11,201 bases of DNA from a virus. The DNA is taken from the UHGV virus genome UHGV-0222504, one strand, 5' to 3'. Position 1 is the first letter of the stretch; each line of letters begins with the position of its first letter. Made by a program: the position numbers. This document shows positions 1 through 3,000 of this stretch, piece by piece.

Positions 1-3000
1 TTCTCAGGCAATGCCACAGCATCGGCACCAATCTTACTGATAATTTCATTAACACCCTGAGCAGAAATAAGGGCATGGATTTGATTAATTGCGGTTGCGT
101 CTAAGTTCTGAGACATAATAAGTCCTCACTATATAAAGATATTCAGTGATGAGATAAATAATCAGTTTATTAAAAACGATATTAACGACCTGCTGCGCGG
201 AGTTTTCCGTCAGGTTCACCGGCAAGAGTCAGTAATTGTCCTTGGTCTTCCTGCAGAATAGTCAGGCGACCACCGCGATTGACATACATCGGCGTTTCGG
301 TGGTGTCTTCTTCGGAAATTTTCCCGCGGTTAGTCGGGCGAACATATGAGAGTTTGTGTTTGATTTTTACACGGTTCTCATCAAACGGTTCGATTTCCAG
401 GTTGAGCGAGACCTTACCTTTGGTTTTCGTGTTCATCACACCGGAAGCGACTTCACTGAGAACAGCGCCGATTTTGGTTTCAAATACGCCGCCGTCCAGC
501 TCCCCGATAAATGCCTGCACATCAGTACTGCGTTCGCTAGCCATTTTGCTGCTCCTCATCATATCGACCCCGCAAGGTCGGTTGGTTTCTCCACAAAACA
601 GAGAAGAACACCAGCGGTGGCAGCCGCCCGGATGGATTGGGTTATGAGCCCGTCGTCCGGTGATGCCCTTCTCTGTTTTGTAAAAAGAGCGGTACCAGCC
701 GGAAGCAAGTGTACAAACTGGTACCGCCAAAGCAGTGGCTGTTGTGGTGACCGGTGCTGATCTCCGGCTTGCGGTTATTTCAGACTCTCACGGGCGTTTA
801 ATTGCCCCGCCGAACAGCTCTTTTCCGCAATAGCTGCAATGTCTTTCGCGCATCAGCCTGCGCATTCACCACAACGCTGAGAGCATTGCCGGTGTCCGAA
901 TCGAACGGACCTTTTCCCTGCCCAACCCTCCCATCTGAATGGGACTGTCTGGAATTGAACCAGCACTTATGCCTTGCTCGTCAATGCTCTCATCGTTGCG
1001 TCCTGGTCTCTTCCCAAGCGTCAAACCGAATCGCCACGCTGGTTAGGCGTCTTATCAGCATCCTCATTGACTTGCACATTCCGGCTACCTGGTTTGTTTG
1101 CCCGAGCAAGGAGTGGATTATCCCCTTTAACGTCCCCAGACCGCTAACGACGCATGTGCCATACGCCGTGTTACAACCAAATTTTGTTTGAATCTTGCCT
1201 GCCTCATGTTTCTTTTGGATACATTATGTATCTCATAGGTACATTGTCAAGTATAAAAAAACCTGCCGAAGCAGGTTCATAAATATTGATTAGGCCTTTA
1301 TTGTGTATCTTCTTGGTTTTCCCGAGAAAATCACTGTACCAATTATAGAGCAATTACCGTTAATCTTAATGTAAGGCTCAGGCCAGTTTGGGTTTAATGC
1401 TTTGAGATAACGCTGTGTTCCATCTTCTATCAACCGCTTGAAGGTGGTTTCGCCTGAATCGTGCATCAATGCAATAACGTCGTCACCGTGGCAGGCAGGG
1501 ACTTCAGGATCAACAAAAATCATGTCTCCCGGGCGGTACTCATCAATCATTGAATCACCAATCACCCGCAAGATATAAGTCATTTCGCCACAGGGTACAG
1601 GGCAGGGATAAGTTTCTGCTGTGCTCAAATCAACCTCAGAATAGCCAACTTCTTTCCATGCTCCGGCCTGTACCCATGATATGACAGGGACTAACGTTAT
1701 TTGTTTGTTAGTGATTGAAACATCAGGTTTTTTTGTGATGTTCGTGGTCTGGTGTTCTTGATCAAGCCATCCGACAGGCAGGTCGAAACATTTTTCGATG
1801 TGCCTTGCCATGCTGTCACCGATATTTTTAGTAGCACCATCTCCCATAAACCTGCTGGTCTGGGTTGGCTCGCGATCAATCATGGTGGCAAAGGAAGAAT
1901 TCCCGCCAACACCATCTCTCAGTTTTCTGGCGTTAGACCGCCGGATGTCATGGACTGTTTTCATAACGAAATTAAAACCTTTGTACCGATAGGGTACAAG
2001 TATCTTGAAGGTTCATCTCAATCATGTAATATGTATACCGGAGGTACATGTTGTATGAAAGCGTATTGGGACTCTTTAACCAAAGAACAGCAGGGCGAGT
2101 TGGCCGGAAAAGTTGGCTCAACACCAGGCTATTTACGGCTGGTTTTCAATGGTTATAAAAAAGCCAGTTTTGTGCTGGCGAAAAAACTTGAGCAATGCAC
2201 GTCAGGTGCAATTACGAAATCTGACTTAAGACCGGATATCTATCCGAAAGATTAACAGAACACCTTCAATTTTTAACCACAGAACGATGAGGCTAACCGT
2301 GGGTAAGCATCACTGGAAAGTAGAAAAACAGCCTGAGTGGTACGTGAAAGCTGTCAGAAAAACTATCGCGGCGTTGCCGGGGGGGTACGCTGAAGCTGCT
2401 GAGTGGCTGGATGTAACAGAGAACGCTTTATTCAACCGCCTTCGTGCAGATGGCGATCAGATTTTCCCGCTGGGATGGGCAATGATTTTACAGCGCGCGG
2501 CTGGCACTCACTACATTGCGGATGCTGTCGCACAGTCTGCTGGTGGGGTGTTTGTATCGCTTCCTGAAATTGAGGAAGTAGAGAACGCCGATATAAACCA
2601 GCGCCTGCTGGAAGTCATCGAACAGATCGGGAGTTACTCAAAGCAGATTCGTTCGGCAATCGAAGATGGGGTAGTGGAGCCACACGAGCAGACAGCAATT
2701 AATGATGAGTTGTATCTGTCAATTTCGAAGCTCCAGGAGCATGCAGCACTGGTCTACAAAATCTTTTGCGCTCCAGAAAAGAGTGACGCCCGCGAGTGTG
2801 CAGCTCCGGGCGTCGTGGCGTTTTGTGTCTGTGGAGAAACTAACGCATGAACAGTTTAACGGCAAATAACCGTTTGTCGCAACAGCTGGTGGTCAGCGTC
2901 GCTGAACACCTGTTGTTACGGCATGAATGCAGATTACCAAATCTCCTGGCTGTAAGTAACCACAGAGAACTTTACCTGACTGTGGGGGGCGAGTTGTGCA

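Follow-up and report, generated by a model that had tools for sequence, protein, structure and literature searches.

Conserved structured RNA modules in the early-left leader of a lambdoid Escherichia coli prophage

A non-coding RNA cassette between the PL-like promoter and yfdP

The stretch of virus genome UHGV-0222504 analysed here (11,201 nucleotides (nt); henceforth 'the window') is an Escherichia coli lambdoid prophage, whose positions 400-1400 are 100% identical to APEC O78 (NC_020163) and other genomes (99.9-100% among the matches listed). On its minus strand, a Peptidase_S24 repressor gene and its terminator hairpin precede a PL-like sigma-70 promoter, and the first early-left protein gene, yfdP, follows behind a small hairpin and a Shine-Dalgarno-like motif (Table 1); the cro-like gene ymfT and the PR operon run rightward from ~2055. 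The PL-like promoter agrees with the consensus at 11 of 12 positions, its predicted transcription start is at ~1216, and the depositors of the phage Ayreon record annotated a promoter at the same site. From there to yfdP, the transcript (~1216..545, ~672 nt) carries no annotated gene in RefSeq among the fully matching genomes listed. A preliminary description of this DNA had proposed that no intact leftward gene lies in this gap (545-1222), and that the gap may instead hold an RNA element at the place taken in phage lambda by N and nutL, transcribed from the PL side. Both proposals are borne out: the gap is a PL-driven non-coding RNA cassette, that is, a chain of modules with folded and covarying helices which is neither empty nor decayed.

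No independent minus-strand open reading frame (ORF) of at least 60 amino acids (aa) exists within 545-1222, and the absence of an N-like antiterminator protein, likewise noted in the preliminary description, is confirmed: no Pfam family matched the ORFs of the gap, and their PHROG matches were to families of 'unknown function' only. The earlier statement that the minus strand offers only peptides of 22-29 aa was too narrow, since its ORFs in fact span 24-52 aa (866..1024, 52 aa; 559..708, 49 aa; 990..1109, 39 aa; 853..966, 37 aa). The yfdP frame is open upstream to a TTG at 730, which yields a purely mechanical ORF of 182 aa, and two plus-strand (antisense) ORFs of 129 and 134 aa have TTG or GTG starts. 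The families phrog_3651, phrog_33599 and phrog_36251 match ORFs 356-760 (+), 559-708 (-) and 802-1191 (+), which run antisense to yfdP or cross the RNA modules; these families probably derive from spurious ORFs called in non-coding but conserved DNA.

Several observations bear on the presence of RNA and on the strand that encodes it. The G+C content of the gap is 54-57%, compared with ~35-49% in flanking windows, and structure prediction, proposed as a check in the preliminary description, finds the minus-strand RNA to be unusually stable (z = -3.9, versus z = -2.0 for the plus strand). Phages such as 1720a-02 and Stx2a phages share positions 400-1197, which include the gap, at ~98% identity; 1720a-02 has a different repressor gene, yet its gap is conserved to the same degree. 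Moreover, the base-pair counts of the two principal modules, the 5' block and the KL module, contain G-U pairs on the PL-transcribed strand. These would be C-A mismatches on the complementary strand, so that the RNA must be read from the PL-transcribed strand; for the same reason, an interpretation at the level of DNA (single-stranded DNA hairpins, recombination sites) is disfavoured. It is almost certain that conserved, structured RNAs are encoded here on the PL-transcribed (minus) strand, and the gap holds at least two widespread RNA families, the 5' block and the KL module, with strong support from covariation.

Covariance-model searches with Rfam, covering the window, sub-regions, a short-insert variant of the KL module and nine related loci, returned no match in the region 400-1400, either at the gathering threshold or at E-values up to 10. 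The matches that were found are transfer RNAs (tRNAs), isrK and C4, all of them outside the gap region, and the gap, for which a small RNA (sRNA) had been suggested, matches no curated sRNA family. A literature search by exact sequence strings and keywords retrieved no description of the modules, although its coverage was incomplete and an earlier description elsewhere is possible; the papers on the Pas sRNA, on Minerva and on 'ten thousand viral RNAs' deal with other elements. Neither the 5' block nor the KL module has an Rfam family or a description in the literature searched.

Architecture of the RNA modules

The 5' block begins ~45 nt past the predicted PL start and is composed of a hairpin H1, a helix H2 that closes a variable arm, an invariant 19-mer (GGUAGCCGGAAUGUGCAAG; 1089..1071, minus strand), a pseudoknot formed by H4 and H5, and a terminal hairpin with a GAAGAGA loop. 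The pseudoknot is of the H type, with a 4-bp stem H4 whose 7-nt loop pairs downstream to form H5. In an alignment (A3) of 31 diverse homologues, 97.2% of the cells are paired and 11 pairs are changed on both sides (for example, GC 17 / AU 14, or AU 17 / UG 7 / CG 6). The covariation score is 0.269, compared with 0.119 in shuffled alignments, none of which (0 of 500) reaches it, and with at most 0.073 when the pairing partners are slid. One pseudoknot of the 5' block is supported by covariation. A second one may be formed by pairing of the 19-mer with the loop of H1; RNAalifold favours an extended version of this long-range interaction, and since both partners are invariant, covariation neither supports nor refutes it. 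The covariance model R1 scores the window's single copy at 137 bits and detects neither a second, PR-side ('R') copy in the window nor any copy in HK022, in SfV or in 69 non-enteric loci containing the KL module.

The KL module follows a common plan across loci: a helix P1, the linker AAU, hairpin A, a single G, a variable insert of 24-161 nt, an A/U-rich linker, and hairpin B, which has the shared form GCCGG[AGAUCAGCA]CCGGC and is joined without a linker to the 3' strand of helix P1. Helix P1 comprises 6-14 bp, and across prophages of alpha-, beta- and gamma-proteobacteria its sequence differs from locus to locus with complementarity kept. The GCUGA of loop A is exactly complementary to an invariant UCAGC in loop B, so that the two can be drawn as kissing loops. 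In an alignment (A2) of 45 distinct, insert-trimmed sequences, 10 of the 12 pairs of helix P1 and two pairs of hairpin B are changed on both sides; covariation amounts to 0.202, versus 0.097 in shuffled alignments (0 of 500 reach the observed value) and at most 0.12 with partners slid. Hairpin A is fixed by the search pattern in these counts, and it is the copy in phage P1, with GCACA/UGUGC and GUCGG/CCGAC, in which hairpins A and B are both seen to covary. A single-sequence fold recovers helix P1, hairpin A, a helix within the insert, and hairpin B. A coding role for the module was considered and rejected: ORFs opened by its conserved AUG vary in length between 7 and more than 45 aa, and pass through the 3' hairpin in three different frames.

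The order of the helices, the linker lengths (3 / 1 / variable / 0) and the loop-loop contact between arms 2 and 4 suggest that the KL module reproduces the topology of the tRNA cloverleaf, with the insert in the place of the anticodon arm and the kissing loops where the D and T loops would meet. A canonical cloverleaf is not recognised: ARAGORN finds none in the window, its relaxed settings give none either, save for a single call at the 80% threshold that could not be classified, and no match to the Rfam tRNA model appears in 400-1400 even at E-values up to 10. As a separate observation, hairpin B (GCCGGAGAUCAGCACCGG, 750-768, minus strand) aligns with positions 30-47 of the rydB Rfam model at 13.7-17.7 bits (gathering threshold 50), a resemblance that could be a relic or a coincidence.

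Between the 5' block and the KL module lies Domain 2, in which a long closing helix (CAACGAUGAGAGCAUUG / CAAUGCUCUCAGCGUUG) surrounds a branched insert with two T-arm-like hairpins. A comparable arrangement is found elsewhere: in 78 of 160 distinct contexts, compared with 25 of 160 after shuffling, an uninterrupted helix of 10 bp or more closes immediately 5' of the KL module, and the helices of these 78 contexts have 69 different sequences. T-arm-like hairpins occur upstream of the module in 17 of 138 contexts and in none of 138 in a control window, and phage P1 shows the same succession of Domain 2 and KL module. We count Domain 2, along with the 5' block and the KL module, as one of three structured modules that are conserved independently of each other and backed by covariation. 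At 870-875, 3-5 nt (GUUGU) belong both to the 3' arm of Domain 2 and to the 5' strand of KL helix P1; this segment can pair either with CAAC 998-995 or with CAAC 744-741, and the overlap could reflect alternative pairing or a coaxial stack. In the relatives Ayreon (2860-2950 of the locus) and SfV (2700-2830), the closing helix P1 of the KL module (GUUGUGGU ... ACCACAAC) is kept but encloses an internal RNA module other than that of the window, which indicates that the helix is a cassette boundary and that modules are exchanged as cassettes.

Downstream of the KL module, a hairpin with a G+C-rich stem of 12-13 bp, directly followed by a U tract, has the form of an intrinsic terminator; its loop of ~15 nt is larger than usual for such elements, and termination is a prediction. 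The preliminary description had reported a boxA-like string here. The string (CGCUCUUUUUACA) is indeed present on the minus strand, at 691..679 rather than 690..678, and coincides with the 3' arm and U tail of the terminator-like hairpin. By chance, its 7-nt core CGCTCTT (691-685) would turn up 1.16 times per window, and it is present in 137 of 200 shuffles; in SfV the hairpin and U run are kept while GCUCUU is changed to GUCCUU. The 13-mer of rrn boxA, allowing up to three mismatches, has no match at this site, no hairpin stands at the boxB position after the string, and GCTCTTT is not enriched after these modules in other phages. The proposed nut site (boxA CGCUCUUA plus a boxB hairpin) is therefore rejected, given a 7-mer that occurs at chance level, is part of a hairpin and is lost in SfV. 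In another phage (L202, 3345-3372), a perfect rrn-type boxA (UGCUCUUUAACAA) lies past the hairpin following the 5' block, an arrangement that is not general.

The chain ends with a long, near-perfect hairpin of 89 nt. One of its branches is capped by CGGGCUCAUAACCC (652..639), which, with three G-C pairs and CAU, matches the core of the initiator tRNA-fMet anticodon stem-loop, and the piece 625-675 is found directly 3' of a tRNA-Arg gene in the Klebsiella phage GZ7. That this hairpin might serve as a decoy for nucleases targeting the initiator tRNA is pure speculation.

On the PR side, the window contains Rfam matches at gathering level to isrK (3207-3283 (+), 64 bits) and to C4 antisense RNA (3308-3395 (+), 82 bits). 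Both lie inside ORF 2847-3683, the ash-family/antirepressor region of the identical RefSeq locus, which looks like an antisense control module of the P1/P7 immI type.

Table 1. Positions of RNA modules, hairpins, genes and signals in the window
Feature	Position	Strand	Basis or detail
5' block RNA, 171 nt	1002..1172	minus	alignment A3, covariance model R1
Domain 2, long hairpin domain	872..998	minus	fold -53.7 kcal/mol, z = -4.5
T-arm-like hairpin 1, CUGG-UUCAAUU-CCAG	~963..949	minus	T-arm scan
T-arm-like hairpin 2, GUCCG-UUCGAUU-CGGAC	~910..894	minus	T-arm scan
KL module, 135-nt four-way junction with tRNA cloverleaf topology (proposed)	741..875	minus	core scans, pair counts, fold
KL helix P1	875-867 with 749-741	minus	followed by linker AAU
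KL hairpin A, GCGCA[GGCUGA]UGCGC	863-848	minus	core scan
KL variable insert	846-771	minus	flank alignment
KL hairpin B, GCCGG[AGAUCAGCA]CCGGU	768-750	minus	core scan
Terminator-like hairpin, GGCGGUACCAG ... CUGGUACCGC, then UCUUUUU	682..728	minus	-21.2 kcal/mol, z = -4.1
Long near-perfect hairpin, 89 nt	593..681	minus	-47.7 kcal/mol, z = -7.05
Repressor gene, Peptidase_S24	1290..1964	minus	ORF and domain match
Terminator hairpin of repressor gene	1278..1259	minus	just upstream of PL-like promoter
PL-like sigma-70 promoter	1223..1250	minus	-35 TTGACA 1250..1245, 16-nt spacer, -10 CATAAT 1228..1223
Small hairpin before yfdP	582..563	minus	sequence reading
Shine-Dalgarno-like GAGGAG before yfdP	~556..551	minus	sequence reading
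yfdP, first early-left protein gene	182..544	minus	RefSeq annotation of identical locus; phrog_204 match

Distribution and genomic contexts

The 5' block is present in 1374 of 5426 complete E. coli genomes (25%) and the KL module in 845 of them (a sixth). Both lie at the most heavily regulated place of a temperate phage, neither is annotated in RefSeq or has an Rfam family, and among the matches listed in E. coli no annotated feature lies under either. E. coli K-12 has neither module, its prophage CPS-53 sharing only positions 1-563 of the window, so that K-12 transcriptomics is uninformative here. Beyond E. coli, the exact 19-mer of the 5' block (GGUAGCCGGAAUGUGCAAG) and an exact 22-mer of the KL module (UGAAUGCGCAGGCUGAUGCGCG) are each found in at least 120 IMG/VR contigs. 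A 21-mer core of the KL module is letter-identical in genomes of 69 species, from genera that include Rhizobium, Massilia, Burkholderia, Pandoraea, Janthinobacterium, Thauera, Pseudomonas, Stenotrophomonas, Aeromonas, Klebsiella and Pantoea. To our knowledge, conservation of this kind is normally confined to RNAs in direct contact with the ribosome, RNA polymerase or RNase P.

A sensitive search reveals that the gap is a mosaic, blocks of which recur in unrelated phages beside tRNA genes on the same strand. Positions 869-1092 have an 88% match in SPN9TCW just 5' of tRNA-Arg; positions 1005-1182 match P1, P7 and D6 between trnI and ban, the 5' block of phage P1 beginning directly after trnI; and positions 740-888 have a 97% match in IME207, a phage of a Klebsiella host, upstream of two tRNAs. 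tRNA genes lie within 1.5 kb of the KL module in 21 of 120 loci, and 33 of the 35 tRNAs concerned are on the same strand as the module. In two IMG/VR contigs (L065 and L097), a complete tRNA-Pro(cgg) is located at the insert position of the KL module, the insert being 161 nt long. In phage P1 (AF234173; 3460-4194, minus strand of the locus), the interval from tRNA-Thr to tciA holds, on the strand of the ban operon, a tandem series of three units, each made up of a tRNA-like hairpin and a KL-type junction. The units overlap the opposite-strand coding sequences plp and upl, which may simply overlie RNA genes. Several 'hypothetical proteins' and PHROG families, and possibly plp and upl as well, overlie these RNAs, and their annotation should be re-examined.

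Upstream of the 5' block, the longest ORF is a Peptidase_S24 (CI-type) repressor in 26 of 50 distinct contexts, and these repressors are mostly just 9-30% identical to that of the window; the 5' block is thus typically a PL leader. In one locus (L164), a convergent gene follows it, and this copy is considered to stand alone. The KL module follows a Peptidase_S24 repressor in 16 of 72 contexts, and Q or NinG, as a late-operon leader, in ~10 of 72. In some phages, no more than ~10 nt separate a PL-type promoter from the beginning of the KL module or of the 5' block. A terminator-like hairpin is located within 150 nt after the KL module in 47 of 135 contexts, compared with 22 of 137 in a control window, although many of the 47 share the same downstream module and are not independent. 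Taken together, the modules occur in PL leaders, in Q-proximal late leaders, in the ban operon of phage P1 and as morons among structural genes, and such varied placement fits freely placed cargo better than a signal tied to one promoter.

Possible functions and relation to known systems

We tentatively favour, as a real possibility rather than an expectation, the view that the modules are stable, tRNA-like cargo RNAs which are expressed from PL, processed in the manner of tRNAs and active in trans, with a hairpin ending most of the transcripts. Upon derepression, the modules would be the first products of PL. They would then be cut from the transcript by tRNA-processing enzymes, with RNase P acting at the 5' side of helix P1 of the KL module and RNase E or 3' exonucleases trimming the 3' side, and would accumulate as stable RNAs that act in trans by occupying a conserved host component recognising tRNA-like shapes; candidate targets are a defence nuclease directed at tRNAs and a tRNA or translation factor. 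The terminator-like hairpin (728-682) would end most transcripts, making the RNAs and not yfdP the main early-left product, and read-through would supply the downstream genes. We prefer this view because it covers all the contexts encountered, that is, arrays, tRNA clusters, late leaders, morons and the stand-alone copy. The tRNA neighbours, the nested tRNAs, the cloverleaf order of helices and the T-arm-like hairpins argue that the modules behave like tRNA-type cargo, and the promoter-adjacent starts, the copy in L164 and the terminator-like hairpins that follow argue that they occur as autonomous units. Several points weigh against it, however. Cleavage by RNase P and action in trans are entirely conjectural; neither ARAGORN nor the Rfam tRNA model sees a tRNA in the region; helix P1 varies in length instead of having a constant 7 bp, and only some variants possess a 3' RCCA. 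The 5' block directly follows a CI-type repressor gene in 26 of 50 distinct contexts and in some phages starts at the 5' end of the transcript, a positional bias as expected of a cis-acting leader element, and the invariance of the 21-nt KL core across phyla could equally have arisen from binding to RNA polymerase or from catalysis.

The main alternative is that the nascent 5' block, the KL module or both fold and bind the RNA polymerase that is transcribing them and carry it through the terminator-like hairpin and later terminators, as an RNA-only processive antiterminator which would be an analogue but not a homologue of HK022 put and would replace N in an N-less lambdoid phage. The position of the modules matches that of putL and nutL, the repressor neighbours of both modules and the starts within ~10 nt of PL fit a promoter-proximal signal, a terminator-like hairpin stands between the modules and the first gene, and no N-like protein is encoded; the extreme core conservation across Proteobacteria would fit a conserved target such as RNA polymerase, and HK022 provides a precedent for RNA-only antitermination (PMC9378689). 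We nevertheless regard it as unlikely: there is no similarity to putL or putR; the window lacks a second copy on the PR side, unlike the pairs putL/putR and nutL/nutR; the KL module also occurs in tandem arrays, in tRNA clusters and downstream of Q, which already antiterminates; its two conserved hairpins are parted by inserts of 24-161 nt (in two loci by a whole tRNA); and the 5' block of L164 has a convergent gene after it. More modestly, the structure might shield the untranslated 5' region and the messenger RNA passively from Rho and from 5'-end-dependent decay by RNase E, or might act as tRNA-like processing 'punctuation'. The ~670 nt of untranslated and yet highly structured RNA, the location of modules at the 5' ends of long operons and their tRNA-like shapes are in line with such a role; it appears improbable all the same, since it requires neither cores of 19-21 nt that are invariant across phyla nor pseudoknots kept by compensatory changes, and leaves the stand-alone copy of L164 unexplained.

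The junction closed by helix P1, with two hairpins whose loops pair, also calls to mind a riboswitch or attenuator, in which the KL module would bind a ligand through kissing loops like those of purine riboswitches and control the downstream terminator-like hairpin; such a hairpin lies within ~20 nt in a third of contexts. We consider this very improbable, given that the invariant nucleotides are in the stems and loops of the hairpins and not in the junction, that the junction accommodates inserts ranging from 24 to 161 nt, with a tRNA at the insert position in two loci, that helix P1 does not overlap the terminator, that most copies have no terminator after them, and that no Rfam riboswitch matches. 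Finally, the gap might be leftover, non-functional DNA from a decayed N-type gene, as the preliminary description had also contemplated, or from a relic tRNA cluster, possibly with a nut-like boxA. Pieces of it do resemble tRNA-flanking sequences elsewhere, a tRNA-fMet-like anticodon arm and a boxA-like 7-mer are present, and in related phages, for example SfV, an ORF follows PL. Decay is scarcely credible, however, for a region that is 98% identical across phages with different immunity regions and has no ORF, whose helices are maintained by compensatory changes, and whose exact cores recur in at least 120 viral contigs and 69 species; the boxA-like core does not exceed chance expectation, and SfV has not conserved it. 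The gap shows no ORF homology either, and orf33 of SfV is unrelated to its DNA.

A bolder proposal, which we hold to be doubtful, is that the 5' block and the KL module represent two phage RNA classes not seen before, which would act directly on a host machine of universal conservation. In its first part, one or both would be RNA-only transcription antiterminators replacing N in a large group of N-less lambdoid phages; if true, the principle of HK022 put would have been invented a second time, independently, and spread across Proteobacteria. In its second part, the KL core, invariant across phyla, could form the catalytic centre of a new ribozyme or could mimic a tRNA and so disarm immunity directed at tRNAs. 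The locus offers a direct test of how lambdoid phages devoid of N or put pass their early-left terminators.

Among known systems, lambda N/nut differs in that the window has neither an N-like ORF nor a credible nut site at the corresponding position. HK022 put, which the preliminary description had named as a possible relative, is comparable in that the RNA of the gap is structured, non-coding and located directly after the early promoter of an N-less lambdoid phage, and contains strongly conserved hairpins that, by analogy, would act on the host machinery without a phage protein. Homology to put is rejected, though, by sequence, profile and phage-set evidence: the best blastn-short match of put in the window is 10 nt long (E = 0.6), the best match of a putL + putR profile has E = 3.2 and lies at 7836-7866, and a search of phage records for putL identified HK022, HK75, O276, HK639 and phiEt88, and none of the window's relatives at the homologous position. 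Terminator read-through by put depends on the zinc-binding domain of the beta-prime subunit of RNA polymerase. The put RNA is ~70 nt long and has two stem-loops (PMC9378689), whereas the modules comprise 135-171 nt with pseudoknots and a four-way junction, have no PR-side copy, and are found in tRNA clusters and arrays as well.

The C4 RNAs of P1/P7 and the CI RNA of P4 (RF01695) are likewise phage RNAs embedded in a leader, with a closing stem and two hairpins, and are released by RNase P from an early or immunity transcript. Their loops pair with phage messenger RNA targets, whereas the loops of the KL module pair with one another and do not vary between unrelated phages; the RF01695 model has its only match at 3308-3395 (+) and none in 400-1400 at E-values up to 10. 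With tRNAs and viral tRNA-like structures, the KL module shares the order of helices, the linkers and a loop-loop 'elbow', Domain 2 shares T-arm-like loops of the form UUCRANY, and the modules are co-located and co-oriented with phage tRNA genes. Unlike in tRNA, the equivalents of the D and T loops meet through five Watson-Crick pairs rather than by the canonical contacts, an insert of free form takes the place of the 'anticodon arm', and helix P1 has 6-14 bp rather than 7.

The prophage location, the proximity to tRNA genes and the nested tRNA, seen for the KL module in L065 and L097, recall GOLLD and ROOL, of which GOLLD can carry a tRNA inside its variable region. This likeness is one of behaviour and not of homology, the GOLLD and ROOL models of Rfam having no match in the window or in related loci. 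The present modules belong to Proteobacteria and are units of ~135-170 nt that are combined in a modular fashion, whereas GOLLD and ROOL are mostly from Firmicutes and environmental sequences and form a single RNA of 500-800 nt. GOLLD and ROOL are elaborate structured RNAs, borne by prophages and often found beside tRNA genes (PMC5737381), and the modules described here are candidates for a proteobacterial counterpart of these unexplained, tRNA-associated phage RNAs.

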